DNA of 64,000 nt, taken from assembly GCA_017410065.1 (NCBI GenBank), contig JAFQRL010000025.1, positions 18,793 to 82,792 on the forward strand, in the 5' to 3' direction. Positions 2,891 through 63,225 of this stretch are shown here, piece after piece. Under the pieces are notes generated by a model. It was not told the DNA's origin, did not search any database, and saw nothing but the letters and a program-made list of their open reading frames with translations. This stretch comes from Clostridia bacterium. GTDB lineage: Bacteria; Bacillota; Clostridia; Oscillospirales; CAG-272. The stretch's first letter is position 1. Each line of letters starts with the position of its first letter. The translations under genes were made by a program, and so were the position numbers.

Positions 2891-2965
2891 TCTCCAAAAG
2901 CTTTAGGAAGCAATAAAAAACAAAACGAAAAACGGGGGATGAGTCATTAACTTAGCCCTGAAAAA

Positions 2966-3018
2966 GAAAAAGCGGATGTTCTTTACCGAAAGGTATTGAG
3001 CATCCGCTTGCTTTGTTG
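2966..3018. terminator. Bidirectional terminator hairpin between convergent genes
   Basis: Stem AAGCGGATG (2970-2978) / CATCCGCTT (3001-3009), with A-runs upstream and T-rich sequence downstream. Confidence 0.5.
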
Positions 3019-3963: not shown

Positions 3964-4808
3964 TATTCAAAAAGCACCTCAAGTTTTTTATATTCTGACT
4001 CGTTCATTCGCATATATTCCAGAGCATCATCACCGAGCTTCATTGCGGTGGCGTTACACATACAGTCAACAAGCGCGATTGGTGCAACGGATGAGTTTTT
4101 TATACCTCCTATATCAACATAGCACGGTAGTAAAATATCGGAATACTCGGCAATCTCATAATAAGGTGCTGCGCTGACCAGCAAAATCTGTACGCCACAT
4201 TCTTTAAGACGCTTTAATATACGAACAGCCTCTGCTGTATATCTGTGGAACAGAAATACAAGGCAAACGTCGTTTTCATTAAGTGAAAGAAGATATTCAA
4301 CCTCGCCGTTATATCCAACAGGAAGCACAGAAACGTTACGTCTTACAGTAATAAGTCTTGTGTATGTATAATGAGCGAGAGCATACGATTCCTTCATTCC
4401 AAAGGTGAATATTCTTACCGCACCCGCGAGAGCGGAAACGGCCTTATCCATCACCTCATCTGACAGCTCGTCAAATGTTCGTCTGAGGCAATCTAACGCC
4501 CTGTTACAGATGCGACAGGTAAGACCGTCCCTGCCGTCATCGTTTGCGGTTTTCTCAAATTTATCGGGAAGGCTGGAATTAGCCTTCAAATCCTCTCTTA
4601 CACTCTCTTGAAGCTCTTTGTATCCCTCAAATCCTATGCGACGGCAAAATCTAAGAACTGAAGTTGTGCTTGTGCCAATTTTTTCGGAAATAGACTCGAG
4701 GGTTTCAAAGGCAAAATCGCTAATGTTGCTAACGGCAAATAAAGCGACCTTGTATTCGGTTTTTGTCATTTCCGTTAAAGTGTTGTTTATTATCCTTAAT
4801 ACGTTCAT
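3963..4808 (-). CDS. MurR/RpiR-family transcriptional regulator (HTH + SIS domain)
   Basis: N-terminal HTH (...IGTSTTSVLRFCRRIGFEGYKELQ...) and a C-terminal SIS-like region. Confidence 0.85.
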   Translation of the reverse strand: MNVLRIINNTLTEMTKTEYKVALFAVSNISDFAFETLESISEKIGTSTTSVLRFCRRIGFEGYKELQESVREDLKANSSLPDKFEKTANDDGRDGLTCRICNRALDCLRRTFDELSDEVMDKAVSALAGAVRIFTFGMKESYALAHYTYTRLITVRRNVSVLPVGYNGEVEYLLSLNENDVCLVFLFHRYTAEAVRILKRLKECGVQILLVSAAPYYEIAEYSDILLPCYVDIGGIKNSSVAPIALVDCMCNATAMKLGDDALEYMRMNESEYKKLEVLFE

Positions 4809-5023
4809 ATGATACCACCTTAAAAGCTATATATATGTATTATACTTTATTTTATTATTTTTTGCAATATTTTTGTATTAAAAAATCCATTATTATTTAA
4901 AAACGTATTAATTTTCACAATATCGTTGACTTTCCCGAATTTTAATGTTATAATTTGAAAGTAAAAAATACATTTTTACGTATTTTGGTAATAATTATAA
5001 CAAAAAACATAGGAGAAAAAATT

Positions 5024-6142
5024 ATGGGAAAGAAAACAAGTTTTTTATACCTTAGCGAAGAGGACATTATTAAAGCCGGTGCTCTTGATTATGCGCGATG
5101 CATCAATGTTGAAGAGGAGATTTTTACATTACTCAGCGAGGGCGATTACGTTATGGGCGGTGACAAACATAATTCGCACGGAATTATGATGAAGTTTCCC
5201 AAAGAAAGTCCGTTCCCAAATATGCCCACAGATGCACCCGACAGGCGCTTTATGGCAATGCCCGCATACGTTGGAGGTAGATTCAACGTGGCGGGTCAGA
5301 AATGGTACGGCTCAAATATAATAAATCCTGGCAGAGGGCTTCCACGCTCTATTCTTATGGTAATGCTTAATGATGCTGACACCTGCGAGCCGATTGCACT
5401 TATGTCAGCCAACCTTATAAGCTCTGTTCGCACGGGATGCGTTCCTGCGGTTGCTACAAGATATCTTGCGAACAAATCGTCATCGGTGTGTGCCTGTATC
5501 GGAGCAGGCCCGGTCAGCCGCGCGTGTTTTGATGCTATAATAATAGAAACGAAGAATTTAAAAGAACTTATAGTATTCGATATCGTCAAGGAAAAAGCAA
5601 ACGATTTTTGCAAATACGCGAGCGAAAAATACAACATTAAAGCAACTGCTGCAGACTCGATGGAGGATGCGGTTAAAGCCGCAGATATAGTCAGTGTTGC
5701 CGCGTCTCCGATAAAGCCCGTTGAACTGAAAAACGACTGGCTGAAGCCCGGCTCAATACTTCTCTTGAGTGGCAGAGGTAACGTTGACGAAGATTACTTC
5801 TCCTCAGCTAACATAGTTTGGGACAACACAAAAATGCATGAGGTCTATTTTGACGAGCATATGGCTCTTGACGAAAAAGACAGGTTTATTAACGGTATAG
5901 GCGTTCAGATATACCGTATGATGTATGAAGGAAAGCTCCCTCCTATTAACGAAGGAACAAGCCTTGGCGACATAATCCGCGGCATCAAGGTCGGAAGAAG
6001 GAATGAAGAGGAAAGATTCTGCTTTATTGCAGGCGGTATGCCTGTATGGGATGTTGGATGGGGATATGACATCTATAATAAGGCCAAGGAAATGGGAATC
6101 GGAACGGAGCTTAAGCTGTGGGAATCACCATATCTTGCGTAA
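5024..6142 (+). CDS. Ornithine cyclodeaminase/mu-crystallin-family protein
   Basis: RBS AGGAGA sits 8 nt before ATG 5024, whereas the ORF-track start 4955 lacks an RBS. Central Rossmann-type CIGAGPVSRA motif and family-typical length. Confidence 0.65.
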   Translation: MGKKTSFLYLSEEDIIKAGALDYARCINVEEEIFTLLSEGDYVMGGDKHNSHGIMMKFPKESPFPNMPTDAPDRRFMAMPAYVGGRFNVAGQKWYGSNIINPGRGLPRSILMVMLNDADTCEPIALMSANLISSVRTGCVPAVATRYLANKSSSVCACIGAGPVSRACFDAIIIETKNLKELIVFDIVKEKANDFCKYASEKYNIKATAADSMEDAVKAADIVSVAASPIKPVELKNDWLKPGSILLLSGRGNVDEDYFSSANIVWDNTKMHEVYFDEHMALDEKDRFINGIGVQIYRMMYEGKLPPINEGTSLGDIIRGIKVGRRNEEERFCFIAGGMPVWDVGWGYDIYNKAKEMGIGTELKLWESPYLA

Positions 6143-6193
6143 AAACGGCTTTTCGCAAAATAATCTCTTGCCAAAACGCAAGTACTCTTTGCT

Positions 6194-6439
6194 TGGTGCG
6201 GACGATGTCGCTCGTTAGGAAAACAGTCAGTAACTGTTTTCAGAGCGAAGACCGAAAGCCTGTCTTGAGGTCTGTCACGTCAACATCCATACGAAAAGCG
6301 CCCCTTTTGGGGTGCTTTTTGTATGGTGCAGACGATGTCGCTCGTTAGGAAAACAGTCAGTAACTGTTTTCAGAGCGAAGACCGAAAGCCTGTCTTGAGG
6401 TCTGTCGCGTCAACATCCATACGAAAAGCGCCCCTTTTG
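6194..6439. repeat. Tandem duplication of a ~116-nt structured element (period 130 nt)
   Basis: Copy 1 (6194-6309) and copy 2 (6324-6439) differ at only 2 positions. Each contains a 7-bp stem / 7-nt loop hairpin (AAAACAG-TCAGTAA-CTGTTTT). Confidence 0.9.
6295..6321 (+). terminator. Terminator-like hairpin at the junction of the tandem copies
   Basis: AAAGCGCCCC-TTTT-GGGGTGCTTT followed by TT. The stem has a G.U wobble on the plus strand that would be a C.A mismatch on the minus strand. Confidence 0.5.
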
Positions 6440-6468
6440 ACGCACCTGCGATAAAGCAGGTTGTATTG

Positions 6469-6504
6469 AAAAAGACATGTTCATTTTTGAGCATGTCTTT
6501 TTTC
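6469..6504. terminator. Bidirectional terminator-like hairpin
   Basis: AAAGACATG (6471-6479) / CATGTCTTT (6492-6500), flanked by an A-run and a T-run. Confidence 0.5.
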
Positions 6505-6533
6505 TTGCATTATTATGGCATATATGATATAAT
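6505..6533 (+). promoter_or_regulatory. Sigma-A-type promoter candidate (TTGCAT-17 nt-TATAAT)
   Basis: TTGCAT at 6505-6510, a 17-nt spacer and TATAAT at 6528-6533. A second TGcTATAAT lies at 6602-6610. Confidence 0.5.
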
Positions 6534-6654
6534 GTCTTTGAAAATCAAAGCATAACTATACTTTCACTCAACAAATACTTCGTGGAATTGTTTTAGAAAT
6601 TTGCTATAATAAAGTCACAAAAGTGCTTTTGAATACTTTTTGGAGGACAATATT

Positions 6655-7746
6655 ATGTCTATTGGTTCGACCATAAAACGTCTGCGCCGTGAGAAGAATA
6701 TTACTCAGGAACAGCTTGCCGAGTACCTTGGAATTACTTCACGTGCAATCTCTCAATGGGAGTGCGATAGAACCGCTCCCGACATTTCGCAACTTCCAGC
6801 ACTTTGCCATATCTTCGATGTTTCATCTGATGTTCTGCTCGGAATCGATATTGAAAAGAATAATGGGGAAATAAAAAAATACTTGGATACAGCACGGAAT
6901 CTGTGTCACCAAGGAAAGTGGGAAGAATATACCGCCATTCTCCGCGAAGCAAACAAAAAATATCCACGTGATTATAAAATCATGCTGACTCTTGCGGATG
7001 CAATTGTTTGCGAATATTCCCGAAAAGGCATCAAGGAATATGATGAGGTGTTTGACCTTTGCAATCGAATTCTTGCGGAATGTACTGACAGCACTACACG
7101 ATATGAAGCAATTCGTACACTTGCTCTTGCATACAAATATGCGGGAAAACGAGAGGAAATGTTAAAGCTTGCCAAGGAAATGCCGCTCACTCATTTTTCG
7201 TATGAAAACTTTATGATGTATCGTTGGAAAGGTGATGCGGATTTTGAAGAATTCCAGGGATATTTATCGTTTTTGATTTACAACACCGCCGCAATGATTG
7301 AACTCGCAGTTGGTCAAAGGCACGATAACGGAGAATTTATTTATCCACTTGAAGACAGAATTCGTTTGTGGAAAACAGAGGTAGATTTTCTTGATTTGAT
7401 TTTCCCCGATGGTGATTATCAAATTAAAGCTCAGCTTGGCGAAATTGCTTGTAGTTTTCTGTGTACCGCATATCTGAGAAAACAGGACTATGAAGAAGCG
7501 TGGAACTGGCTGGAAAAAGGTGCGGATTTTGCTGTTCATATGGACACATATGATTTTGGTGCGCCACACACCTCGCCCATTCTTCGCGGTTACTCAAGTG
7601 GCGGTTGGATTATGGAGGCAGAAGGCAACCGTTCGCAATCTCTGCTTGAATGGTTAACAAACGATGATGAAGCTGCCGTTTTGCGTTCCGATACCCGTTA
7701 TGAAGTGCTTGTTGATCGATTGAAAAAAGTTGCTAAAAAGCCGTGA
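6655..7746 (+). CDS. XRE-family HTH regulator with C-terminal TPR-like helical domain
   Basis: GGAGG lies 8 nt before ATG 6655, and the track's TTG 6640 overlaps that RBS. N-terminal IKRLRREKNITQEQLAEYLGITSRAISQWE is a classic Cro/C1 HTH. The remaining ~290 aa are helical-repeat-like. Confidence 0.8.
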   Translation: MSIGSTIKRLRREKNITQEQLAEYLGITSRAISQWECDRTAPDISQLPALCHIFDVSSDVLLGIDIEKNNGEIKKYLDTARNLCHQGKWEEYTAILREANKKYPRDYKIMLTLADAIVCEYSRKGIKEYDEVFDLCNRILAECTDSTTRYEAIRTLALAYKYAGKREEMLKLAKEMPLTHFSYENFMMYRWKGDADFEEFQGYLSFLIYNTAAMIELAVGQRHDNGEFIYPLEDRIRLWKTEVDFLDLIFPDGDYQIKAQLGEIACSFLCTAYLRKQDYEEAWNWLEKGADFAVHMDTYDFGAPHTSPILRGYSSGGWIMEAEGNRSQSLLEWLTNDDEAAVLRSDTRYEVLVDRLKKVAKKP

Positions 7747-7934
7747 TTTATTGCCCTGCCTCGCGCGGGGCTTCGCTTTTGTGCCCACAAAAGCAGTGCT
7801 TGTCAGGAAAAGAAGACGGACTTTTGAGGCGCACAAACCAAAGGCTCCCTTGTGTAAAGGGAGGCTCATCACCGCCCGACAGTACACCTAAAAGGTGTAA
7901 CACACTATACCTTGCAAAGCAAGGCGTGTGAAAA

Positions 7935-7971
7935 GGAGTACGAACAAATTGTCCGTACTCCTTTTGTTTTT
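7935..7971 (+). terminator. Rho-independent terminator candidate
   Basis: GGAGTACG (7935-7942) / CGTACTCC (7954-7961) followed by TTTTGTTTTT. Confidence 0.55.
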
Positions 7972-7997
7972 CTCTGCAAGCAAAACCTGCTTTATGG

Positions 7998-8145
7998 AAA
8001 GCACCCCTTGGGGGTGCTTTTTGTATGGTGCAGACGACGGGACTTCCGCCCGTGGCGGCCTTAGCCGACAAACAGTTATCAACCGTTTGGTCCTTCGGAC
8101 AAATTGTTATCGAAATTTTCTCCCTATTTCAAGTCCCTCGCACTT
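7998..8145. repeat. Third, diverged copy of the structured element, with terminator hairpin and four consecutive hairpins
   Basis: It shares 27 identical nt (8011-8037) with 6309-6335. It then has hairpins of 5 bp/7 nt (8037-8053), 4/4 (8056-8067), 7/7 (8069-8089) and 4/3 (8090-8100). Confidence 0.6.
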
Positions 8146-8157
8146 ATAAAACAAAAC

Positions 8158-8188
8158 GGGGCTATCTTAATGAGACAGCCCCTTTTTA
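8158..8188. terminator. Bidirectional terminator downstream of the FGGY kinase gene
   Basis: GGGGCT...AGCCCC stem followed by TTTTT on the plus strand. The complement is followed by TTTTGTTTT on the minus strand. Confidence 0.6.
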
Positions 8189-8265
8189 AATCCAACAAAC
8201 AAAAATCTATCGAAGGCTTTGCGGCGATATGGGAGCTTTTTCCATTTTTCCGACCGCAAGCCTTT

Positions 8266-9558
8266 TTATTTCAAGGCGTACATTGCGGCACCGACCGCGC
8301 CGCTATGGGCTCCGTAGGTGACAGTAACCTCGGCTCCGAACACCTCGGAGATCACCTGACGCCACATTTTGCTTGAGGACGGTCCGCCGCACATTGCTAT
8401 GCGATCTATCTTCACGGTGCCCGATATCCTCTCCTTAAGCTTTCCCGCGATACCCTCCATAAGAGCCCTTGCGATGCTCTCCTTCGAATATGCCGAAAGG
8501 TCGGGCAGCTCCTTTGCCAGGGGGTTAAAGGATAAGCCGTCGGTTTTGCCGTTTGAGAGTTCCGCATATTTTTCAAGCTCGGCGAATTTATTTTCGCCCG
8601 AGGCGATATATTTTTCCACGATCTCCGCTATTCTCTCGGATGCTCTTGCAAGCGAGCACATAGCTGCCCAGGGTCCGCGAGGAGTGAGGAAGGGGTCACA
8701 AAGAAATTCGTTTTTCACGATGCTCTCTCTATCCTCCATCGGGAAAAGGCAGACCCAAGAGGTGCCGCAGGAGACGAGCAGGTCGCCCTCCTTAAGAATT
8801 CCCGAGGCGCGGGCGGCTGTGGGATGGTCGAAGGAGCCGACAAACACCTTCGTTCCCTCGGGGAGTCCTGTGTCGGCTGATGCCCGAGACGTGAGCGAGC
8901 CGAGCAGGTCGCCGCTTTCACGAAGGGGCGGAAGCTGGGCTTCGCAAAGCCCGAGAGCCGAAAGATATTCCTTATTCCAGCATCTCTTTTTCTGATCGAG
9001 GAAAAAGAAGGGGGTGGCGGTGGAGACGTCTATTCCCCACTCTCCCGTCAGCCTTTTGAGAAGATATTCGGTGGTCATACACACCACGTTTTCCTCCGAG
9101 AGAAGCTCGGGAGAATTGAGCCTTACGTGGGAAAGCTGACCGAGGGGGAAGGAGCCCGAAAGACCCCATCCCGCGCTCTCTCTAACCTCCGAGCCAAAGC
9201 CCTCTCCAAATACGGCGCGTATCTCCTCTGTGAAGGGCTTATTGAGCCAGGAATATGCGCTGATTTTGGCGTTACCTTGGCGGTCGCATATAAGGGAGTT
9301 GCCCGATGCGCTTGCCATTGCTATGCCCGAGAGATCAGCTCCTGCGGGAAGATGGGCGGAAAGCTCCTTTATGGTGCCCGTGACGGTGCGATAAAATTCT
9401 TCCGGGTCTATGCCGAGGTATTCCGCACCGCTTGGGAGATATGCCCTTCTATAAGAAAATGGGGCGGTCGACTTGGCAATTATGCCGAGCTTCTCCGAAA
9501 AAAGCACGGCCTTTGCGGAGGAGGTGCCGAGGTCGAGACCTATTGCGTAGCGTTCCAT
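8266..9558 (-). CDS. FGGY-family carbohydrate kinase (short, xylulokinase-like)
   Basis: N-terminal AIGLDLGTSSAKAVLF motif, a C-terminal GGPSSS...W motif, and a GGAGG RBS. Confidence 0.85.
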   Translation of the reverse strand: MERYAIGLDLGTSSAKAVLFSEKLGIIAKSTAPFSYRRAYLPSGAEYLGIDPEEFYRTVTGTIKELSAHLPAGADLSGIAMASASGNSLICDRQGNAKISAYSWLNKPFTEEIRAVFGEGFGSEVRESAGWGLSGSFPLGQLSHVRLNSPELLSEENVVCMTTEYLLKRLTGEWGIDVSTATPFFFLDQKKRCWNKEYLSALGLCEAQLPPLRESGDLLGSLTSRASADTGLPEGTKVFVGSFDHPTAARASGILKEGDLLVSCGTSWVCLFPMEDRESIVKNEFLCDPFLTPRGPWAAMCSLARASERIAEIVEKYIASGENKFAELEKYAELSNGKTDGLSFNPLAKELPDLSAYSKESIARALMEGIAGKLKERISGTVKIDRIAMCGGPSSSKMWRQVISEVFGAEVTVTYGAHSGAVGAAMYALK

Positions 9559-20869: not shown

Positions 20870-22576
20870 TTATTTACATATTCCCTTAAGAATAAGCTTA
20901 TTTACTGCTTCGCGTACCTTAAGCATCTCCTCTGCCGAGCGAGCGCAACGCTCGAAGGTTATCTCGTCGCCGAGGGCATCCTCCATTGCGCGGACGACCT
21001 CCTCGTGAGAGAAATATTTTTCGGCAAGCTTCATTGCGCGGAAGTCCTGCATCGCCTCCTCCATAGTGAGGATACGGATGGATTCAAGGGGTGTGCCGTC
21101 GTTATTCGGGTAGACGATAAAGGTGTCTCCCGCAGGTACCCAATCCTCGCCCGAAAGGTCAAGATAGGGGTTGATGGCATCGCCCGAGGCGCGGTTATTA
21201 TAGTAGTTATAGCCCCAATGAAGGAAGCCCTTAACGTCGTATTTATAGAGCTGCATACCGATGGAGCGAGTGCGCCAGGAGGGCATAGCGAGATAGCAAT
21301 TTGAATAGTCAACTACCTGGTTGCAGGCGTAGTAGACCCAAAGATTTTTAACGCCCGCCTCGATAAACGGCATTGCGTGGCAGGTTACGGGCACAGGCTC
21401 CGTTACCGCTCCGATATTATAGAATTCGATATTTGAGAGGGCGTCCATAATCGTGTAACCCTCTAAAAGATCGTCGATATTGGTTTTGATCTTATTGAAG
21501 TGCTCAAGGTCGTCGATACCCGGCTCGTCTGCAATATGGAAGAAGCAACGCTTATCGTCTCCGCGCGCCTTCATATGAGAGAGGAAGGCGGTGATAAGTG
21601 CGCGAAGAAATCTTACGTATTCGGGGTCGTCCGAGAGAGTTTCCCAGCCGAATATCATTTTCTCTTCGCCATCGACCCTCGCATAAACGTGAGCCGAATG
21701 AGCCGCCTTATGCTGATCGTAGAAATGGGATATTTCAAAATACTTTATGCCGATCCTATCGCACATATCGACCCATCTATCCACGTTGTCGAAGCCGAAT
21801 TTATATTCACCGTCCACAACCTCAACGTCAACGAGCTGGCAGTTTTCTCTCTCAAAGGGAGGAAGCACGTTAAGAGCGGGGGTGAGGAGTGTGGTGTAGA
21901 GAACGTTTCTTCCTCTTTTTGCGGCGACCCTTGCGAACTCCTCAACTATCCTCCAATGCTCCTCCGACCAAGCCTTAACGCGATAATAAGAGGCGAGGCA
22001 ATCGGGATAGAACCATTGGGTGTGAAGAAGGGTCTGCTCGGGAAGGCTTGCGGGAATTACGTTAATTTTAACGGTGTTGGTTGAGAGGCACTCGCCCGAG
22101 AAGGAGGCAAAGCCTGTGTCGCCGACTGCGGCACTTGTGAGATAAACCGAGACAGAAAGCTCGGTGCTTCCCGAGAAGCCCTCGGGTACGTCGATCTCAA
22201 GCCAGAGTGAGCGAAGCCTGTCTCTGCCAACGACGATCTTGCCGCCGTATCGCATAGGAGTGAGGATGTCGGGATATATGCCCGAGGAGAGGCGAAGATA
22301 GTTTTTATCCTCCTTGACGCTTGGGTGAGTCGGTCTTTCAACGGGAACGCATCTCACATCCCTCATTCTGACGTGCTCCGCAAGAGAGCCCTCAAGCCTA
22401 ACCTCGCAGAAGGGGCGGATGGGGAGCTGATTCTCCGAGCCCTCGTCAACGTATGCAAATTGAATATTCAGCACCTCGCCGCCAAGCACGTTGATCGAGG
22501 TGAGCGCGTCAAAGGAATCTATCTTATCATCGATAAAGAGCTTTTCCTGACCCGATATCAGCTTTGTTTTAAACAT
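20870..22576 (-). CDS. DUF4091-like putative glycoside hydrolase (paralog A)
   Basis: 568 aa, collinear with the 38119-39813 product (e.g. DRWVDMCDRIGIKYFEISH, GDDKRCFFHIADEP, GFLHWGYN.YN). The family name is from recall. Confidence 0.7.
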   Translation of the reverse strand: MFKTKLISGQEKLFIDDKIDSFDALTSINVLGGEVLNIQFAYVDEGSENQLPIRPFCEVRLEGSLAEHVRMRDVRCVPVERPTHPSVKEDKNYLRLSSGIYPDILTPMRYGGKIVVGRDRLRSLWLEIDVPEGFSGSTELSVSVYLTSAAVGDTGFASFSGECLSTNTVKINVIPASLPEQTLLHTQWFYPDCLASYYRVKAWSEEHWRIVEEFARVAAKRGRNVLYTTLLTPALNVLPPFERENCQLVDVEVVDGEYKFGFDNVDRWVDMCDRIGIKYFEISHFYDQHKAAHSAHVYARVDGEEKMIFGWETLSDDPEYVRFLRALITAFLSHMKARGDDKRCFFHIADEPGIDDLEHFNKIKTNIDDLLEGYTIMDALSNIEFYNIGAVTEPVPVTCHAMPFIEAGVKNLWVYYACNQVVDYSNCYLAMPSWRTRSIGMQLYKYDVKGFLHWGYNYYNNRASGDAINPYLDLSGEDWVPAGDTFIVYPNNDGTPLESIRILTMEEAMQDFRAMKLAEKYFSHEEVVRAMEDALGDEITFERCARSAEEMLKVREAVNKLILKGICK

Positions 22577-38074: not shown

Positions 38075-38118
38075 GAACACGGCGACGGCGCCGAAAACGG
38101 TTTTTGAAAGGAAAATTT

Positions 38119-39813
38119 ATGCTTAACGTAAAAATTATTTCGTCTCAGGACAAGGTGTTTTTCGATCAGTCCACGGATGATTTCAAATCGCTTGAGAGGA
38201 TCAGCGTGCTGAGAGGCGAGAGGCTTTCGCTTCAGCTTATCTATGCCTTTGATCACAACGATCTTCACAGAACTCCCCTGTTTTATTCACCTGTGCTCGG
38301 CGGCGAGCTTGCAAAATACGCGACCCTTCGCGGCGTTAAGCACGTGCCCGTTATGAAATACGACGGAGATTATTCAAACCCCCATCTTGTTGATTATCTC
38401 CGCTTGCCTCCCGGGCTTTTCCCCGACCTTCTCACACCTCTTGCAGGCGGCAAAAACTTCGCTATCTGCGACAGAATGACGGAGAGCATCTGGATAGAGA
38501 TCGATATTCCCGAGGATATGGCGGCAGGCAAATACGAGCTGCCTATCAGAGTTGATCTCGTTGAGGAGCAGATAGCCTTCGGCACGGGCGAGCCCGAAGA
38601 AGCCGCAAGCTGCTCTGTTGAGATTGAGGTCATCGGTGCGACCCTTCCCGAGCAGAAGCTTATGCACACCGAGTGGTTCCACGCCGACTGCCTTGCCCAG
38701 TATTATAACGTTCCCGTTTGGTCGGAGAGACATTGGGAGATCATAGAAAACTTTGCAAGAGTGGCGGTCAAGGGCGGCGTAAATATGCTTCTCACCCCTG
38801 TTTTCACCCTTCCTCTTGACACCTCGGTTGGCGGCGAGAGACTCACGACCCAGCTCGTTGGTATAAAGAGAACAAACGGCAGATACACCTTCAACTTCAA
38901 GCTTCTTGACAGATGGGTGGATATGTGCGACAGAGTTGGTATCAAGTACCTTGAGATATCCCATCTCTTCACTCAATGGGGCGCAACTCACGCACCCAAG
39001 ATCATGGCGACCGTGGACGGCGAATATAAGAAGCTCTTCGGCTGGGAGACAGATGCTCACGGCGAGGAATATAAGAAATTTATGCGTTCCTTCCTGAAAG
39101 CTCTTTTGAAGCATATGAAGGCAAGAGGAGACGATGAGCGTTGCTTCTTCCATATTTCCGACGAGCCCAACAGCGAACAGCTGAAGGACTATAAGAAATC
39201 CAAGAGGATCGTGGATAATATTCTCAAAGATCACACCATTATGGACGCGCTCTCTCACGTTGAATATTTCAAAAAGGGCATTACAAAAACTCCTGTTCCG
39301 CTTGTCAGCCACGCAGAAGAATTCATTGAGGCGGGAATTGAAAATCTTTGGGTCTACTATTGCGGCGGCGGTCGCGGCGGATATTCAAGCCGTGTTTACG
39401 CAAAGCCCAATTACAACAACCGTTCTCTCGGTATGCAGCTTTACAAGGCAGGCGTTGTCGGCTTCCTTCATTGGGGCTACAACTTCTACAACACCCGCCG
39501 CTCCTTCGACTCCGTCAACCCCTTCGTTGAGGTAAACGGCGAGCATTGGGTGCCTGCGGGAGATGCGTTTATGGTCTACCCCGCGCAGAACGGAGAAGCG
39601 CTTGAGTCGCTTCGCTTCGTTGTGTTCAACGAGGGCTTGCAGGATATGAGAGCTATGCAGCTTTGCGAGAGCCTTTACTCCAAGGATGAGGTCGTCTCTG
39701 CTATCGAGGAGGTGCTTGGAGACACCCTCACCTTCACAAGATGCGCAAAGAGCTCCGAGGAGATGCTCGCTGTGAGAGAAAAGATCAACGAAATGATAAA
39801 GGCAAAGGTCTGA
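38119..39813 (+). CDS. DUF4091-like putative glycoside hydrolase (paralog B)
   Basis: Collinear with the 20870-22576 product. ATG 38119 is preferred over the track's TTG 38104. Confidence 0.7.
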   Translation: MLNVKIISSQDKVFFDQSTDDFKSLERISVLRGERLSLQLIYAFDHNDLHRTPLFYSPVLGGELAKYATLRGVKHVPVMKYDGDYSNPHLVDYLRLPPGLFPDLLTPLAGGKNFAICDRMTESIWIEIDIPEDMAAGKYELPIRVDLVEEQIAFGTGEPEEAASCSVEIEVIGATLPEQKLMHTEWFHADCLAQYYNVPVWSERHWEIIENFARVAVKGGVNMLLTPVFTLPLDTSVGGERLTTQLVGIKRTNGRYTFNFKLLDRWVDMCDRVGIKYLEISHLFTQWGATHAPKIMATVDGEYKKLFGWETDAHGEEYKKFMRSFLKALLKHMKARGDDERCFFHISDEPNSEQLKDYKKSKRIVDNILKDHTIMDALSHVEYFKKGITKTPVPLVSHAEEFIEAGIENLWVYYCGGGRGGYSSRVYAKPNYNNRSLGMQLYKAGVVGFLHWGYNFYNTRRSFDSVNPFVEVNGEHWVPAGDAFMVYPAQNGEALESLRFVVFNEGLQDMRAMQLCESLYSKDEVVSAIEEVLGDTLTFTRCAKSSEEMLAVREKINEMIKAKV

Positions 39814-55262: not shown

Positions 55263-55625
55263 ATGAAGGAAACCAGACTTGGAGTTATCGAATCGAGATT
55301 TGCTGATATTGTTTGGGAGCGCGCCCCGCTTTCCACGTCGGAGCTTATCAAGCTTTGCGAAGCGGAGTTCAATTGGAAGCGCACCACAACTTACACCGTA
55401 TTAAAAAGACTTTCCGAACGCGGAATTTTCAAGAACGATAACGGAACTGTTACGGTCTTAATTTCAAAAGACGAGTTTTATTCTATGCAAAGTGAAAAGG
55501 TTGTTAACGAGAGCTTTGGCGGTTCACTCCCTGCTTTCATAGCCGCTTTTACCTCAAGGCAAAATTTGAGTGAAGACAAGATAGCGCAAATCAAAGCCAT
55601 AATCGAAAATATGAAAAGGAGCTGA
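55263..55625 (+). CDS. BlaI/MecI/CopY-family transcriptional repressor
   Basis: 120 aa. wHTH ...W.....S..EL........W...T..T.L.RL..KG... Confidence 0.85.
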   Translation: MKETRLGVIESRFADIVWERAPLSTSELIKLCEAEFNWKRTTTYTVLKRLSERGIFKNDNGTVTVLISKDEFYSMQSEKVVNESFGGSLPAFIAAFTSRQNLSEDKIAQIKAIIENMKRS

Positions 55626-55627
55626 CG

Positions 55628-57568
55628 ATGGAGTATTTATTCATACACGTATTGAATATAAGCATCGCTGCAAGCTTCCTCGTTTTAGCCATTATTCTTT
55701 ATCGCTCATTTGCTAAAAAAGCACCAAAATGGATTTCGGTTTTGCTTTGGGGACTTGTTGGTTTAAGATTGCTTTTCCCTTTCAGTATTGAAAGCGCATT
55801 GAGTCTTATACCGAGCAAGAATACCATACCTACTACGATTACGCACGATAGATATCCCGCACTTGATACCGGATTTGAAAATGTTGACGAAATCGTTAAT
55901 CCCATTCTTTCGGGTTCGATGGAAGCTCGTCCTGAATATAGCGCAAATCCCATGCACGTATGGATAACTGCGCTCGGTTGGATTTGGCTCGCTGTTATGC
56001 TCTGTATGCTACTCTATATGGCAGCATCGTTTATTTATCTGCGTATAAAAACAAGAGTTAAGGTAGAGCGCGAAGACAACGTATATCTTTGTGATTATGT
56101 AAAAACACCGTTTATACTCGGAATCATCAGACCGCGCATTTATCTACCCTCTGACATATCCGATAAGGATTATTCTCTTGTTGTGGCGCACGAAAGAGCG
56201 CACATAAAACGCCTGGATTATATTTGGAAACCGCTAGGGTTCTTGCTTCTCTCTATCTATTGGTTCAATCCGCTTTTGTGGGTTGCTTACGTGCTTCTGT
56301 GCCGTGACATTGAGTCGGCTTGTGACGAAAAAGTCATTTCCAATCTTGGCGATAACGAAAAAGCCGATTATTCAGAAGCACTTTTGACACTCGGCATAAA
56401 AAACAGAGTCATTTCCGCGTGCCCCCTGGCTTTCGGAGAAGTATCTGTCAAGTCAAGAGTATCGGCTATTTCAAAATATAAAAAGCCTGCAACTATTGCG
56501 ATAGTTATTTCACTTGTAGTTTGCACAATCTTTGCAGTTTGCTTTTTGACTTACAAAAAGAACAATGCCGTAGCTGTGGAGCAAGGAATTTGGTATGCCG
56601 GAAAGGTAATCGGCTCAACTGATGCAAATGCGACCTGCGACGATGTTCCGCTATTTGTTTTTACCGAGAACGGTGACTTGCTCGTAGAATCTAAGAATCT
56701 TGCTGACCTTTCTTACGTTAGGCTCGGTAAGATGAATACCGCATACGTATCCAAAAGCGAATACGAATCACTTTTCGAAGGAGTCACCTTCCGTGAAGGC
56801 TATGATGCTGAATATTTCCATAATGTCATCAAAGCTGCGTGGAGAATAACTCCGTCTGTTTCTTCGGGAATTGACCACAAAGAAGTATACCTTTTACGCA
56901 CCGAAAAAGAGCTTTATATGGGTTATGCCGATGACGGAAAAATTGGCACGCTCTATGAGCTTAGGTTTAATGAAGCCTTGCCAACATATCTTTATACTCT
57001 TAAATATACTTCCCCCGAGGTTAATAACGCGGCTTTAATTCTCGATTCAAGCAAAGGAAACGGACGTATAACATTTGGGGATCATTCGAGTTATACAGCG
57101 CTTGGTACTTATGAATACAAAAATTCGAAGCTGATCTTTACAACCACGGATTACTTTGAATTAAAGCTTGTGTTCCTCGACGTAGGCGGTGCACTTATAT
57201 ATTCCGAAAAAGACTCCGATACACATGGATTATCCGGTTTGTTCCCTGATGGGATTTTGTTCCACGGCTATTATCAGCTTTATGGTGCTTCGCAATGTAC
57301 AAAATTCTTTGATATCAACAACGATGGAAATCACGAGCTGGTATCTGTAAATATAGGAAACAGCGGTACACTTTGGTATCTCGTTCATTCGCAGGGAGTT
57401 GCTCTCGCAAACAGCACCATTCCTTTCACAAAATACGATGATATCAGATTTGAGGAAAAGGACAGTTCTCTTTACCTTGTTTGTGAGTATAGTGACGTTG
57501 ATTTCAATTCTTATCGTTATAAGGTAACCTTTGATGGCAAAAATCTTATCTTTACTCCGGAGGAATAA
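55628..57568 (+). CDS. BlaR1/M56-family membrane metalloprotease-sensor with a non-PBP C-terminal domain
   Basis: N-terminal TM helices, zinc motif HERAHIKRLD (HExxH), a further TM helix and then a ~330-aa extracellular domain. By eye I found no S-x-x-K penicillin-binding motif in that domain. Confidence 0.8.
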   Translation: MEYLFIHVLNISIAASFLVLAIILYRSFAKKAPKWISVLLWGLVGLRLLFPFSIESALSLIPSKNTIPTTITHDRYPALDTGFENVDEIVNPILSGSMEARPEYSANPMHVWITALGWIWLAVMLCMLLYMAASFIYLRIKTRVKVEREDNVYLCDYVKTPFILGIIRPRIYLPSDISDKDYSLVVAHERAHIKRLDYIWKPLGFLLLSIYWFNPLLWVAYVLLCRDIESACDEKVISNLGDNEKADYSEALLTLGIKNRVISACPLAFGEVSVKSRVSAISKYKKPATIAIVISLVVCTIFAVCFLTYKKNNAVAVEQGIWYAGKVIGSTDANATCDDVPLFVFTENGDLLVESKNLADLSYVRLGKMNTAYVSKSEYESLFEGVTFREGYDAEYFHNVIKAAWRITPSVSSGIDHKEVYLLRTEKELYMGYADDGKIGTLYELRFNEALPTYLYTLKYTSPEVNNAALILDSSKGNGRITFGDHSSYTALGTYEYKNSKLIFTTTDYFELKLVFLDVGGALIYSEKDSDTHGLSGLFPDGILFHGYYQLYGASQCTKFFDINNDGNHELVSVNIGNSGTLWYLVHSQGVALANSTIPFTKYDDIRFEEKDSSLYLVCEYSDVDFNSYRYKVTFDGKNLIFTPEE

Positions 57569-57571
57569 TGA

Positions 57572-57940
57572 ATGAAAAGTTATAAAGTGTTATTTACTAT
57601 CGGTTGCGTTGTTATCGCTTTAATCGTAGGTATGATTATCGGTATTATGCTCCCTGAAAAAACTGTGGATTTTAACGGTAGAGTAACGGGCATAACCGAG
57701 AAAGAAGACGGAACTTATTTATTAAAAGCCGAATCAATTGCAGGTGGAGAGTTTTCGTTTATAATAGATAGCAAGAGTGATCTTGAAAACTACTGTGATG
57801 AGGACATTACCGTAGATGATATATCGGTTGGCGGAATAGTGCTTATAAACTATCGAAACTCTCTTTTTAAAAAGGCTGAAATAAAAACAGTTAAGGACTT
57901 ATCTTATTTTACCGGTTCGGAGAATACTAATGGGAATTAA
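57572..57940 (+). CDS. Small membrane-anchored/exported hypothetical protein
   Basis: GGAGGA RBS, an N-terminal TM/signal anchor and a ~90-aa beta-rich ectodomain. Confidence 0.6.
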   Translation: MKSYKVLFTIGCVVIALIVGMIIGIMLPEKTVDFNGRVTGITEKEDGTYLLKAESIAGGEFSFIIDSKSDLENYCDEDITVDDISVGGIVLINYRNSLFKKAEIKTVKDLSYFTGSENTNGN

Positions 57941-58604
57941 AATTACAAACCTTACGAAGAAATACGACTCATTCGGCACAGAAATCACAGCCCTCGGTGG
58001 TGTTAATCTTACCTTCAACGATGGAGAGTTGGTTGCCATTATAGGTGAATCCGGTTCGGGCAAAACTACGCTTCTAAATCAGTTGTGCGGAATGGATGTG
58101 CCTGACAAGGGCGAGATTATAATTGACGGAATCAGTCTGACGAAGCTTTCTTCTAACGATCTTTGCAAAATGAGACGTAGCAAGATTGGTGTTGTATATC
58201 AATTTTATAATCTTATCCCAGAACTCAATATACGAGATAATATTACTCTTCCCGTCGAGCTCGACGGTGGAAATGTGGATGAGAATGAACTGTCGGAAAT
58301 TTTGAAAACTGTTGGACTCTTTGGAAGAGAGCATGATTTTCCGAGTGCTTTATCGGGCGGTCAACAGCAAAGAGTTGCAATAGCACGTGCACTCTATCAA
58401 AAGCCTTCGCTTATTCTTGCGGATGAGCCTACAGGAAATATTGACGAGAAAAACAGCGAAGATATACTCGGACTTCTTTGTAAACTGAACGAAGAAAAGA
58501 AAATTACCGTAATTATCGTCACTCACAGTAAAGTAGTTGCTGACAGAGCCAAACGTCTTATATCGCTAAAAAACGGACAAGTCATTAGTGACGAGGTAAG
58601 ATGA
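57930..58604 (+). CDS. ABC transporter ATP-binding protein (MacB/LolD/FtsE-like)
   Basis: Walker A GESGSGKTT, LSGGQQQR and Walker B ILADEPTGNID. Confidence 0.9.
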   Translation: MGIKITNLTKKYDSFGTEITALGGVNLTFNDGELVAIIGESGSGKTTLLNQLCGMDVPDKGEIIIDGISLTKLSSNDLCKMRRSKIGVVYQFYNLIPELNIRDNITLPVELDGGNVDENELSEILKTVGLFGREHDFPSALSGGQQQRVAIARALYQKPSLILADEPTGNIDEKNSEDILGLLCKLNEEKKITVIIVTHSKVVADRAKRLISLKNGQVISDEVR

Positions 58605-58605
58605 T

Positions 58606-59739
58606 ATGAAAACGCTGTTGCATATCACTTTTGCAAAGATGAGAAAAGACTTCAAAAAAAGCTTATTTCAATCTTTTGCTGTCTTCGTGTCTATGTTTGC
58701 TATATCTTTCTTTGTGTGCTTTGTTGTTTCTCTCGAAGCTTTCAGATCCGCGAATCCGACTTTCGGTATTGAAGCCATTGGGGGAGAAAACCTATTAACG
58801 ATTGAATCTTTTAGCTCGTTCTTTAAAGAAATTGTATCGGGAATTAGTTTTATCGCTATCGCCATTATAATTCTATCTTTCGTTGCATTGTTTATATTTG
58901 CAAGGCTACGAATAGAAGAAAACAAGCACTTTTTCGCAACGCTTACAAGTATCGGAGCTACAAGCGGTCAAAGAAAAATCATTTCTATTACAGAAACACT
59001 TGTTTTATACGGAATCCCAATCTTGTTAGGCAGTTTTCTTGGAATACTCCCTTCACAGTTGTTTACCAGTATGGTCGCTCGCATTTTCGTAAGTGACTAT
59101 AAGCACTCGCCTATTTCAATTCTGATCCCTGCGCTTCTTGCTATTGTGGGAGTAGTGCTTGTGCTAACATTTACTTATGTACCAAGCGTGAGACGAAAGA
59201 AATCTGTAATAGAGACGGTAAAAGCTTGCAACAAAAAGGAATCCGGCAAAACACATAATTATCGCAATTCATACACGTTTCGTCATATGCCCGTCGAAAA
59301 GCGTATTGCGAAAAAGAGTGTAGCTTATTATAGCAGCACATATCGTCGAATCACGTTTATGTTTATCTCCTGTGTTTTTTATCCCGTTTTGGCAGTAATT
59401 TTCTTTGTGCTCGTATCCGAAACAAGTGTAACGGATTACACACCTAATTATGGCGTTGATGCAACCAAGCTTGTAGGAATATTTGCAAAAAACATAGCAA
59501 TATTCGGAGTTTTAGCTTTCCTGGCATTAACGGTGTTCGGAGTTCTTCAAACAGTGTATATCATTCAAGCTCACAACCGCGTTAGGCGAGAAACATTGGC
59601 TACTTATAAGAGTATCGGCATGACTAACGACAGCATTAAAAAAGTGTTGAAATATGAATATATGACTGCAGTTTTTCATGCAGTAGTTTACCTCATATTC
59701 ATACTGGTTTTAGCCTTTGTTGGTATAAATAGTTTTTAA
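58606..59739 (+). CDS. FtsX-like ABC transporter permease
   Basis: Multiple TM helices. C-terminal FtsX-type segment (YKSIGMTNDSIKKVLKYEY...). Confidence 0.75.
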   Translation: MKTLLHITFAKMRKDFKKSLFQSFAVFVSMFAISFFVCFVVSLEAFRSANPTFGIEAIGGENLLTIESFSSFFKEIVSGISFIAIAIIILSFVALFIFARLRIEENKHFFATLTSIGATSGQRKIISITETLVLYGIPILLGSFLGILPSQLFTSMVARIFVSDYKHSPISILIPALLAIVGVVLVLTFTYVPSVRRKKSVIETVKACNKKESGKTHNYRNSYTFRHMPVEKRIAKKSVAYYSSTYRRITFMFISCVFYPVLAVIFFVLVSETSVTDYTPNYGVDATKLVGIFAKNIAIFGVLAFLALTVFGVLQTVYIIQAHNRVRRETLATYKSIGMTNDSIKKVLKYEYMTAVFHAVVYLIFILVLAFVGINSF

Positions 59740-59850
59740 TTTGTAACAAAAAGGGGGTCTACATAAGCAAAAAAACAACCTGTTGTCACAAGAATCTGTC
59801 ATTGTAAATATCTTTTTTAGCAATAATAACTTAGAATAGCGAAAATATTG

Positions 59851-59879
59851 TTGAATTTTGTATATTTGTGTTGTATAAT
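59851..59879 (+). promoter_or_regulatory. Near-consensus sigma-A promoter for the dgt-like gene (TTGAAT-17 nt-TATAAT)
   Basis: TTGAAT at 59851-59856, an exact 17-nt spacer and TATAAT at 59874-59879. Confidence 0.6.
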
Positions 59880-59921
59880 ATAGATTGAAAAACAAAAATT
59901 ATGCAAATGAGGTGTGACAAT

Positions 59922-61400
59922 ATGGAATGGACTGTATTACTAAAACCAGAGAAAGTTAGACAAAAGTCATCTGTGACAAAAACTAGTAACGACGCACGTT
60001 CCCCTTTCAAAGTTGATTTTGATACGGTGTGTAATTGTACTGGAATTCGCAGATTGCAAGATAAGGCACAAGTCTTTCCTTTGGAAAAAGGCGACTATGC
60101 AAGAACGCGTCTTACTCATTCTATTGAAGTCATGTCAATCGCTGAATCTTTAGGAGTTCATGCCGTAAAAGTTATACAGGAAAAAACGAATCCCGACTCA
60201 AAGTTGGCAGAACAACTTAAAGAAATTCCGGTCATCTTGCGAACAGCGGCATTATTACACGATATGGGAAATCCACCCTTTGGCCATTTAGGAGAAGGGA
60301 TCATAGGCGATTGGTTCAAAACTAAGTTAGCAAGACTTATCATTGAGCCCAAAACTCAAAAAGTCATATTTAGCGAAAACACTTCTGTTGGAGTTAATAG
60401 ATTAATCGACATACTCTCTGAAGAACAAAAAAGCGATTTGAGAAATTTCGAAGGCAACGCACAACTACTCAGACTAATTTCTAAACTTAATTATGTGGTG
60501 GACGAAAATGGGATGAACCTTACATATCCAGTCTTAGCTACTATCATTAAATACCCATGCAGTGCTATAAGTTGCGAAAAAGCAAAAACAAACAAAACAT
60601 CTCGCCTTTTGAACAAAAAACCCGGTTATTTTTCTTCGGAAAGAGACTTGTATGAAAAAATCAATAGTAGTCTTGGATTAAATAACAAAAGATATCCACT
60701 GACATTTCTCCTAGAAGCAGCTGATGATATAGCATATTTAACAGCTGATATTGAAGATGCTCATAAAAAAGGAATCATTTCTTTTACCACTATTGAAAAA
60801 TATTTCGAAACATATAATTCCGAGCATAAAGATGCATTTGTTCAATCCATAATTGATGAAATAGCTAAATACCGCGTTCAAGGAGCCGAACAAGGCATTA
60901 CTGATATTGACAATTACGTAATGCAAAGACTTAGGATTTTTATTAAAGGTAATATGATCAGCCGAGTCATGGATAGTTTCGAAAAAAACTACACCAATAT
61001 AATGAATGGCTCGTTTGAAGACGAATTGCTTAACGATTCAGAAGCTAATGGGGTTGTTTCCATCATAAGAGAAAATATTGAAAAAAAGCATATATATTAT
61101 TGCAAAGAAATTGTAAATTCCAAAATAAAGTCATATAAAATATTAAGCACTCTTTTAGATTCTTTCATCCCCTGCGTTTTTAACTTTGAAAAAGAAGGAA
61201 AAAACGATGATAAAGATAGTTTAATTTATAATCTGTTATCTGACAATTATAGGTTTATATGTAACAAAGCAACATCAGGATTGAAGTTATATGAACCAGA
61301 CTACATCTACAATAAACTATTATTGGTGACAGATTTTATTAGCGGAATGACTGACTCTTACGCCAAAGATATGTATGAATTGCTTGTTTCGATAAAATGA
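59922..61400 (+). CDS. dgt: Dgt-type deoxynucleoside triphosphate triphosphohydrolase (HD domain)
   Basis: GAGGTG RBS before ATG 59922. Collinear with the E. coli Dgt N-terminus: F..D...I......RRLQDK.QVFPL......RTRLTHS.EV, then LLHDMGNPPFGH (HD at 60258-60263). Confidence 0.85.
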   Translation: MEWTVLLKPEKVRQKSSVTKTSNDARSPFKVDFDTVCNCTGIRRLQDKAQVFPLEKGDYARTRLTHSIEVMSIAESLGVHAVKVIQEKTNPDSKLAEQLKEIPVILRTAALLHDMGNPPFGHLGEGIIGDWFKTKLARLIIEPKTQKVIFSENTSVGVNRLIDILSEEQKSDLRNFEGNAQLLRLISKLNYVVDENGMNLTYPVLATIIKYPCSAISCEKAKTNKTSRLLNKKPGYFSSERDLYEKINSSLGLNNKRYPLTFLLEAADDIAYLTADIEDAHKKGIISFTTIEKYFETYNSEHKDAFVQSIIDEIAKYRVQGAEQGITDIDNYVMQRLRIFIKGNMISRVMDSFEKNYTNIMNGSFEDELLNDSEANGVVSIIRENIEKKHIYYCKEIVNSKIKSYKILSTLLDSFIPCVFNFEKEGKNDDKDSLIYNLLSDNYRFICNKATSGLKLYEPDYIYNKLLLVTDFISGMTDSYAKDMYELLVSIK

Positions 61401-61563
61401 CTTCAACATGTCGCATATTTTTCCTTTTTGAAAACAAAATATTAATAAATTGTAAATAACTCTGATTTGGCCTTGTTTTATATTATTATTTATGTTACAA
61501 TAGGAACTGCTAAGAAGATTAGGTCTTTTTAGACTCATATAAAATTTCATACGAAATTTTAAG

Positions 61564-61592
61564 AGATGGCTGTAGAAGTCATCTTTTTTTTT
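61564..61592 (+). terminator. Rho-independent terminator abutting the RBS of the next gene
   Basis: AGATGGCT (61564-61571) / AGTCATCT (61577-61584) with one G.U pair, followed by a 9-T run. The RBS AAAGGA begins at 61594. Confidence 0.65.
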
Positions 61593-61608
61593 GAAAGGAT
61601 GTCGATTT

Positions 61609-62976: not shown

Positions 62977-63049
62977 GAAATTACATATAATTGTATTGTG
63001 CTATAGCACTCCTTTTTTAAGGAAAATGCTTAGTTTAAGAAACTAAGCA

Positions 63050-63075
63050 GCGCCCGATTATATCGGGCGTTTTTT
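63050..63075 (+). terminator. Rho-independent terminator after the DAC-like gene
   Basis: GCGCCCGAT-TATA-ATCGGGCGT followed by TTTTT. Confidence 0.7.
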
Positions 63076-63182
63076 ATATATTCTTCAAAGTTGTTTTTTA
63101 AATTAAACTAACATATTCAAGCAAACACTTTGGTTAATTATAAATATTATATTAGAAAGAGGCTTCTTCATTTAAGCACAAG

Positions 63183-63225
63183 CGAATAAAAAACGGAGAT
63201 GTTATTTTTACATAGCGTCTCCGTT
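63183..63225 (-). terminator. Terminator candidate for the minus-strand kinase gene
   Basis: AAACGGAGA / TCTCCGTTT stem. On the minus strand it is followed by a T-run. Confidence 0.5.

Follow-up and report, generated by a model that had tools for sequence, protein, structure and literature searches.

Among insertion sequences (ISs), IS1397 and ISKpn1 insert in the loops of repetitive extragenic palindromic (REP) sequences, or palindromic units (PUs), and the IS200/IS605 group, its derivatives (palindrome-associated transposable elements, PATEs) and IS91-type rolling-circle elements are moved by HUH single-strand transposases. REP sequences have also been described as insertion sites of ISPpu9, a member of the IS110 family (PMC12288879), targeting by IS608 of the IS200/IS605 group has been described (PMC5934647), and intrinsic terminator motifs are the homing sites of class C (IIC) group II introns (PMC1702495). 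Mobile insertion cassettes (MICs) and miniature inverted-repeat transposable elements (MITEs) with a passenger gene have IS-derived ends and cargo and lack a transposase; MIC231 of the Bacillus cereus group and the qnrS2 MIC are examples (PMC5444012, PMC4337579, PMC6199540). Here, we analyze a 64-kb stretch of DNA from a Clostridia bacterium (contig JAFQRL010000025.1, source sample SAMN15829899), the whole of which is called the window, and describe a 1,572-bp cassette (6439–8010, plus strand) that carries one regulator gene and lies within the hairpin of an intrinsic transcription terminator. Our literature search found precedents for hairpin targeting and nothing that describes this cassette. 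We assign a probability of roughly 80% to the structural account, in which a tandem array of 130-nt units received the cassette in a terminator loop; this figure covers the structure only, and the mechanism of mobilization is graded separately below.

The array occupies the intergenic region between two convergent genes, an ornithine cyclodeaminase/mu-crystallin family (OCD) gene on the plus strand (4985–6142; Pfam PF02423, E = 1e-55) and an FGGY carbohydrate kinase gene on the minus strand (8266–9558; assigned with Pfam), which is the last gene of a sugar operon. The repeat, family D1, aligns 6182–6309 with 6312–6439 at 95% identity and has a period of 130 nt. Unit 1 (6194–6323, plus strand) is intact, with a body at 6194–6288 followed by a terminator made of a 5' arm (6287–6304), a TTTT loop (6305–6308) and a 3' arm (6309–6326). 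The left part of unit 2 (6324–6438, plus strand) retains the body, the terminator 5' arm and the TTTT loop and is then cut by the cassette. When 6324–6438 is joined to 8011–8025, the product is identical to unit 1 at 128 of 130 positions and aligns with it free of gaps. Removal of 6439–8010 thus rebuilds unit 2, and 6439–8010 is therefore an insertion, placed between the loop (6435–6438) and the 3' arm of unit 2's terminator. Homology with two comparison loci, L013 and L020, runs over 6424–8022 and 6442–7779, respectively (labels of the form L0xx and L1xx denote loci fetched for comparison), and each edge is ambiguous by approximately 1 nt because of G residues at both junctions. The target has an intact paralogue in unit 1, which serves as a paralogous "empty site" for unit 2. 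With a slash marking the junction, the predicted uninterrupted sequence is ...GCGCCCCTTTT/GGGGTGCTTTTTGTATGGTGCAGACGACGGG, and a circle joining the right end to the left end would read ...GCACCCCTTG/GACGCACCTGCG... The arrangement is not an assembly artefact: it is carried by 5–6 contigs, an independent Logan contig repeats the right junction, and the independent assembly L103 matches 7919–8358 at 100%.

This geometry accounts for the feature that first drew attention to the locus. A 27-mer, GGGGTGCTTTTTGTATGGTGCAGACGA, occurs exactly at 6309–6335 and 8011–8037 on the plus strand, 1702 bp apart, just as the first-pass annotation of the window had reported; there are no further copies within 3 mismatches, and none of 100 shuffled sequences gave any match. 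The similarity extends to 34 nt at 94% identity (6302–6335 against 8004–8037). The 27-mer consists of a terminator 3' arm with its T-run (15 nt) plus the 12-mer that opens the following unit, and it is thus a unit-to-unit junction. The left copy joins the 3' arm and T-run of unit 1 to the first 12 nt of unit 2, TGGTGCAGACGA, and the right copy joins the displaced 3' arm and T-run of unit 2 (8011–8025) to the same 12-mer (8026–8037) at the start of a third region. As an array junction, it is therefore seen between units 1 and 2 and again between unit 2 and the third region. The repeat had been thought to enclose only the regulator gene and its flanks, which is wrong, as the body of unit 2 (6336–6438) is enclosed too and fills the 103-nt gap between the end of the left copy at 6335 and the start of the cassette at 6439. 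Judged from the sequence, the 27-mer is a by-product of an array interrupted by an insertion, and is neither an integration product, an att site nor a target duplication.

The cassette contains a single open reading frame (ORF), two promoters and its own terminators, and no transposase gene. Its left module ("class A"; 6439–6519, plus strand) begins with the terminus GACGCACCTGCG and is common to L013, L020, L035 and L040, in all of which GACGCACCTGCGATAAAGCAGGTT and the terminator hairpin at 6469–6502 recur. The module includes an ACCTGC/GCAGGT hairpin (6444–6461) and a 12-bp inverted-repeat arm (6451–6462; inverted repeats I5 and I10). The hairpin at 6469–6502 is strong, followed by a T-run and bidirectional (fold z = -7.6), and it is predicted to insulate the cassette from upstream read-through transcription. 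A promoter and leader region with two -10 boxes follows (6520–6654, plus strand); it is kept in all relatives, with homology starting at about -130, and each -10 box is followed by a palindrome (CTTTGAAAATCAAAG and CAAAAGTGCTTTTG, at about 6537–6551 and 6620–6633). Conservation across relatives L013–L036 extends, down to approximately 70% identity, over 130 nt ahead of the regulator gene and includes the palindromes CTTTGAAAAWCAAAG and CAAAAGCGCTTTTG. The palindromes are probably operators for autoregulation. A structured RNA leader for the regulator gene was also considered and dropped, as RNAalifold found neither RNA structure nor covariation in the alignment of 6520–6654, only conserved DNA motifs.

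Downstream of the gene, its own terminator (7753–7781, plus strand; from the terminator scan) marks the end of the universally conserved core, with homology mostly ending at about +33. The right module (7782–8010, plus strand) is common to L013 at 96–100% identity and contains a hairpin (7842–7864), a terminator (7931–7965) and the second inverted-repeat arm (7984–7995). The two arms form a 12-bp subterminal inverted repeat shared by the window and L013, of which approximately 0.2 would be expected by chance in 2.8 kb. At 7998–8007 lies a "decoy" terminator 5' half, AAAGCACCCC, followed by TTG, which pairs with the terminator 3' arm orphaned in unit 2; the decoy stands at the right end of both the window and the L013 cassettes as AAAGCACCC(C). 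Decoy and orphaned arm together fold at -25.5 kcal/mol (z = -4.7). Termination is thus predicted to be restored at both junctions, by the left terminator on one side and by the decoy-rebuilt terminator on the other. Open reading frames of 66–107 aa also cross the cassette/host junction on both strands (7949–8149 and 7748–8071) and are most likely spurious; one has an upstream AAGGAG, but this motif belongs to a terminator stem.

The single gene (6655–7746, plus strand) encodes a 363-aa regulator with an XRE-type helix-turn-helix (HTH) domain and tetratricopeptide repeats (TPRs), detected as Pfam HTH_3 and a weak TPR_14 match. Its AlphaFold2 model has a confidence (pLDDT) of 87, and the best Foldseek matches in the PDB are PlcR (E = 1.7e-5), ComR, Rgg2, NprR and PrgX, with TM-scores of only about 0.3. 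The predicted fold, an HTH followed by a TPR peptide-binding domain, is like that of the RRNPP quorum-sensing regulators, at these low TM-scores, and similarity to RRNPP proteins at the sequence level is confined to the HTH. Homologs number 1,127 at E <= 1e-3; the 120 listed come from metagenome-assembled genomes of Ruminococcaceae/Clostridia, are 73–95% identical and are nearly all 363 aa long. No conserved adjacent propeptide gene was found: the conserved core stops 33 nt past the stop codon and holds no conserved small ORF. Like PlcR, ComR, Rgg, NprR, PrgX and AimR, the protein has an N-terminal XRE-type HTH and then an all-helical TPR-like domain; unlike them, it combines a length of 363 aa and HTH-only similarity (TM about 0.3) with the lack of a conserved propeptide neighbor.

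Relatives of the cassette at 86–95% identity occupy at least seven unrelated gene contexts. L013 lies between a permease gene and acpP and matches window 6424–8022 at 95–97% identity; L020 lies between an HTH_3 gene and an AP endonuclease gene and matches 6442–7779 at 86%. L015 and L016 follow Cu-oxidase_4, tRNA-Met and tRNA-Glu genes and have differing downstream genes, L017 adjoins tRNA-Leu and Gut-1 RNA, L021 lies between pectate-lyase-like and SipL genes, and L022 and L040 represent further contexts. In pairwise BLAST, the universally shared core begins at about -130 nt (with two promoters, each followed by its palindrome) and ends at about +33 nt (the gene's terminator), and it is flanked by left and right modules that are interchangeable among relatives; the right module of the window recurs in L013. 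The upstream gene is co-directional with the cassette in all five cases. At L017, the Gut-1 RNA (4202–4276; RF01706, 64 bits) lies directly 3' of tRNA-Leu and upstream of the XRE-TPR gene. The flanks of the cassettes also hold a second family of small GC-rich palindromic repeats, such as GGGAGCTGWCGCCGYAGGCGRCTGAGGGA and CCACCGCTANCGCGGTCCCCC, located in L013 at 6209–6304, in L022 at about 1330–1480 and 2900–3000, and in L034 at 1–200. In L013, a GC-rich repeat copy of approximately 95 nt interrupts the hairpin that is intact at window 7842–7864.

The relatives repeat the pattern seen in the array. In L013, L020 and L022, the cassette separates two perfectly complementary terminator halves at the boundaries of homology. 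With a slash at each cassette edge, L013 reads AAAAAGCACTCC-TTTT/element on the left and element/GGAGTGCTTTTT on the right (12-nt halves), L020 reads TAAAAAAGCATTTGC-CTT/element and element/GCAAATGCTTTTTTA (15-nt halves, matched by 0 of 200 shuffles), and L022 reads AAAAGGTAAGC... and ...GCTTACCTTTT (11-nt halves). Rebuilt, the sites of the related cassettes fold as canonical terminators (z = -5 to -6.6; the terminator of unit 1 reaches -8.4), and the targets in the window, L013, L020 and L022 all have a GC-rich stem-loop with complementary arms and a U-run. The left junction of L040, AAAAAAGGGGC-TTTT/GGCGTGCC..., shows an A-run, a GC stem, TTTT and the element end, with its right side beyond the contig. 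The stem sequences are unrelated but the element ends are identical, and the terminator halves are therefore host sequence. In five independent loci the loop is followed directly by the left terminus GRYGYRCCTGMGATAAAGCA, and the bases before this terminus are TTTT, TTTT, TTTT, ATTT and CCTT, so that TT is found in five of five. No target-site duplication was present at the junctions of the window, L013, L020 or L022. L022 additionally has a 17-bp terminal inverted repeat, CTCTGCAAnnTTAGCGG, which is also present in L020, L021 and L032.

A number of observations weigh against this account. An orthologous empty site was not found from either the OCD or the FGGY side, so that the empty site carrying a single 27-mer that was sought in close relatives has no example. 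L018, the closest OCD relative (81.6% at the nucleotide level), aligns over 3971–6142 only, with synteny stopping exactly at the OCD stop codon, and all contigs with an identical FGGY protein also carry the right end of the cassette. The 130-nt units have no relatives anywhere searched and their RNA nature is putative. The complementary halves at L013 (12 nt) and L022 (11 nt) were each reached by 6 of 200 shuffles, and the 17-bp terminal inverted repeat of L022 and L020 is absent from the window and L013. Junction types also vary: in place of a split hairpin there is a direct repeat, of 52 nt in L016 and of at least 31 nt in L034. Old paralogy, and not recent movement, could account for part of the diversity of gene contexts. 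Finally, L104, whose flanks are 99% identical to those of L013, has a different 3.4-kb GntR-ABC segment at that place, and the L104/L013 breakpoints fall outside the terminator halves; this suggests a hot spot at which segments are replaced, not a clean insertion. The strain-variable segment between the permease gene and acpP corresponds to L104 6369–9738 (GntR-ABC operon) and L013 4733–6476 (XRE cassette).

With the structure set out, the question of movement can be put more cautiously. The cassette may be a non-autonomous mobile element moved in trans, one that would prefer the single-stranded loop of terminator hairpins and insert in the direction of the upstream gene. A classical DDE transposon would fit less well than HUH-type single-strand transposition or a hairpin-directed recombinase because the target is not duplicated, the left end follows TT in five of five loci, the ends carry subterminal hairpins and the orientation is constant. 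Any specific mechanism of this kind is speculative, and we would expect it to prove wrong more readily than right. A Pfam scan of 46 ORFs of the window yielded neither a recombinase nor a transposase, the cassette has none either, and the left end of the cassette had no match in viral contigs. The broader proposal is also tentative, with the odds against it: a family of single-gene RRNPP-type cassettes in uncultured Oscillospiraceae-like Clostridia, inserted in fixed orientation and without target duplication into terminator loops, whose own terminators (plus the decoy half in one subfamily) would rebuild termination on both sides, and which would be moved by a hairpin- or single-strand-specific enzyme.

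The strongest alternative needs no dedicated element. Terminator palindromes may be fragile sites at which hairpin or cruciform cleavage leaves breaks that capture or exchange DNA by illegitimate or short-homology recombination, as would be consistent with split terminators that are unrelated in sequence, with junction types that differ by locus and with the other segment held at the same intergenic spot by the 99%-identical strain L104. The decoy half in the window and L013 resembles the targets and would fit recombination through 13–15 nt of homology. Random capture, however, would not be expected to yield recurring precise ends, and here an identical left terminus stands at the loop in five independent loci, preceded by TT and in one orientation, and cassettes of the L022 type are bounded by their 17-bp terminal inverted repeat. 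Capture at broken palindromes, unlikely as we judge it, is a real rival to a trans-acting, hairpin- or single-strand-specific enzyme, which would fit best.

Much further down the scale is a reading in which the 27–34-nt repeat is an att core, or a long target-site duplication, made by a site-specific integrase. A perfect 27-mer does flank a gene-sized segment, the direct repeats of L016 (52 nt) and L034 (at least 31 nt) hug the regulator gene, and three relatives adjoin tRNA genes. Against this, the body of unit 2 separates the left copy from the cassette, the cassette ends of L013 and L020 have no such repeat, the 130-nt periodicity fully predicts the repeat, and no integrase is present in the cassette or among the Pfam-scanned window ORFs; we consider this reading very unlikely. 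The first-pass annotation had suggested att-like duplications left when a small regulator cassette entered a tRNA-like element, and of this the cassette insertion survives, whereas the target is a terminator loop and the att duplication falls away. In L016, the 52 nt duplicated on either side of the regulator gene (4698–4749 and 6159–6210) are 96% identical, and in the tRNA-Met/tRNA-Glu context (L015 4550–4700, and L016) a structured element follows the tRNA terminator, its first 52 nt being the sequence duplicated in L016.

The units themselves have a clear predicted structure. Each consists of a three-way-junction fold of approximately 95 nt followed by an intrinsic terminator. On the plus strand, a unit starts with UGGUGC(A/G)GACGA, and the 12-mer forms the 5' strand of the helix that closes the three-way junction; this closing helix begins with UGGUGCAGACGA. 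The body (6194–6288) folds at -34.4 kcal/mol (z = -3.09), with the minus strand about equal (z = -3.5). The terminator, CCAUACGAAAAGCGCCCC-UUUU-GGGGUGCUUUUUGUAUGG, has an 18-bp stem followed by TTTTT and folds alone at -32 kcal/mol (z = -8.4); unit 1 including its terminator reaches z = -8.05. A G.U pair in the terminator stem (G6300 with U6313) becomes an A.C mismatch if the minus strand is read, and one of the two differences between units 1 and 2 (A6277 against G6407) changes U-A to U.G on the plus strand only; both mildly favor the plus strand, so the minus-strand preference that had been drawn from a G.U pair in the third copy does not carry over to the units. No Rfam family matched the units at threshold, the best matches being at chance level (E = 0.1–5) and far below gathering scores. 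No other copies were found in the window, in approximately 100 fetched loci, or in viral contigs, plasmids or phages. Among 185,579 species genomes (596 Gb), an 18-mer core, TTTGTATGGTGCAGACGA, had 11 matches against approximately 17 expected, and the two in Clostridia sit within decarboxylase-like coding sequence; a genome-wide repeat family was therefore dropped. The units are best described as an orphan tandem repeat with predicted structure.

The third region (8026–8195, plus strand), delimited by alignment, folding and the terminator scan, comprises the 12-mer, four small hairpins and a bidirectional terminator (8158–8182) that also ends the minus-strand FGGY operon. From 8038 onward its similarity to a unit is weak, at a score reached by 2 of 500 shuffles, and its hairpin at 8070–8088 is 79% like the central hairpin of the unit. 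Plausibly, the region is an old relative of the units, now strongly diverged, that keeps only the 12-mer start; the idea that it was a diverged copy can stand on this basis, and the accompanying claim that it keeps the architecture is loosely true at most. Unequal crossing-over at the shared 12-mer may have produced the recent unit duplication. The region folds no better than expected on either strand (z = -0.43 on the plus strand; z = -0.26 for 8026–8160 on the minus strand).

Two further readings of the units and third region can be set aside. In the first, they would be small protein genes starting at an ATG in the 12-mer (ATG GTG CAG ACG, MVQT), with the 27-mer a conserved terminator plus start region. 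Two ORFs, 6323–6454 (43 aa) and 8025–8189 (54 aa), do begin with MVQT, and unit 1 has an in-frame TTG at the matching position, but a Shine-Dalgarno sequence is absent, the ORFs cross strong terminator hairpins, the period of 130 nt is not divisible by three and the source assembly has no gene called here. The 43-aa ORF is treated as spurious because its product has no homolog in 1.84 billion proteins and it reads through a terminator, and we regard coding by the units as highly improbable.

The least probable reading, to which we give almost no weight, is that the minus strand of the third copy, and perhaps that of the units, encodes a tRNA-like RNA or mimic ending in CGUCUGC-ACCA: the proposed minus-strand hairpins (8090–8100, 8069–8089, 8056–8067 and 8037–8053) are present in the predicted fold, in rough D, anticodon, variable and T order ahead of the 3' ACCA, and a pair in one stem is G.U if read from the minus strand and A.C if read from the plus, but ARAGORN found no tRNA or tmRNA in the whole 64 kb, Rfam tRNA-clan matches over 6100–8280 were absent both at the gathering threshold and at E <= 10, the minus-strand fold of 8026–8100 is shuffle-like (z = -0.93, with 36 of 200 shuffles folding equally well), CGUCUGC has no 5' partner strand, the T-loop (CGGAAGU) is non-canonical, the D-like loop has 3 nt and the "anticodon" stem 7–9 bp, the CGUCUGC-ACCA end is simply the reverse complement of the 12-mer that serves the units as the 5' arm of a plus-strand helix, the G.U pair of the unit terminator exists only on the plus strand, and, read along the minus strand, the region comes directly after the FGGY terminator and has a promoter match of no more than 9/12. 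A tRNA or tRNA-like element was accordingly dropped; the tRNA-derived repeat family and the tRNA mimic offered in the first-pass annotation are likewise unsupported, given the lack of a tRNA signal, the chance-level 18-mer matches and the lack of further unit copies.

A tandem array with one insertion therefore explains the perfect repeat by geometry and removes the tRNA-mimic reading; direct repeats bracketing a gene within tandem arrays are no evidence for att sites. In gut Clostridia, intrinsic terminators may offer small regulator cassettes a safe-harbor landing pad, as no gene is damaged when DNA enters between loop and 3' arm, and termination is predicted to be restored by the cassette. 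The repeated occurrence of a regulator-only cassette in terminator loops, in one specific orientation, merits follow-up; if the mobility is real, it would explain the spread of this RRNPP-like sensor family to new loci. Elsewhere in the window, positions 56000–64000 have a GC content of approximately 36%, compared with approximately 50% in the remainder, and this part, with a BlaI/BlaR1-like pair (55263–57568) and an ABC/FtsX transporter, may be an acquired island. Two paralogous glycoside hydrolases of the GH123 family are encoded on opposite strands (20870–22576 and 38104–39813).

Compared with the systems introduced at the outset, the cassette resembles hairpin-targeting ISs, IIC introns and MICs, and matches none of them on the defining features tested. 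Two further candidate classes were rejected. An integron gene cassette was excluded as the edges are not at a G/TT core (attC GTTRRRY), the cassette has its own promoters and the inverted-repeat arms lie at opposite ends. A group IIC intron was excluded by the lack of group II Rfam matches and by the position of the insertion inside the hairpin, and readings of an integron attC, a group II intron 5' GUGYG and a T-box UGGN, considered from the sequence, were dropped for want of any model match.

The IS200/IS605 and IS91 elements share with the cassette the lack of target duplication, the lack of long terminal inverted repeats (in the type found in the window), subterminal hairpins such as that at 6444–6461 in the left end, insertion directly 3' of a T-rich motif, a strict orientation bias and, as proposed above, a single-stranded target. 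Unlike them, the cassette has left and right ends that are not a matched pair across copies, and the ORFs scanned in 64 kb of genome include no gene for TnpA, TnpB or Rep; the T-rich motif is short, known from five cases and confounded with the U-rich loops of terminators. MICs and MITEs are likewise small elements (1.4–1.8 kb for the cassettes) with one non-transposition gene and no transposase, with defined recurring ends (in the L022 type, a 17-bp terminal inverted repeat), and with many unrelated chromosomal contexts. The regulator cassette differs from them in the lack of a target-site duplication at any junction, in a subterminal inverted repeat of only 12 bp in the window and L013, in end modules that are mosaic between copies and in its targeting of a hairpin loop, and no insertion sequence sharing its ends was identified as a parent.

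The closest parallels in target choice are the REP-targeting ISs and the IIC introns. The former also insert within an extragenic palindromic hairpin and leave an arm on either side, but they are autonomous, encode their own transposase and use a conserved repeat family as target, whereas the targets of the cassette are intrinsic terminators unrelated in sequence and the cassette encodes a regulator only. IIC introns also use a terminator stem-loop as landing signal and are co-oriented with the upstream gene; they insert just 3' of the hairpin and T-run, whereas the cassette lies between loop and 3' arm, and they are ribozymes with a reverse transcriptase, whereas the cassette region has no Rfam group II signature. 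If its mobility is real, a regulator-only element that targets the loops of terminators would join the hairpin-targeting ISs and the IIC introns.

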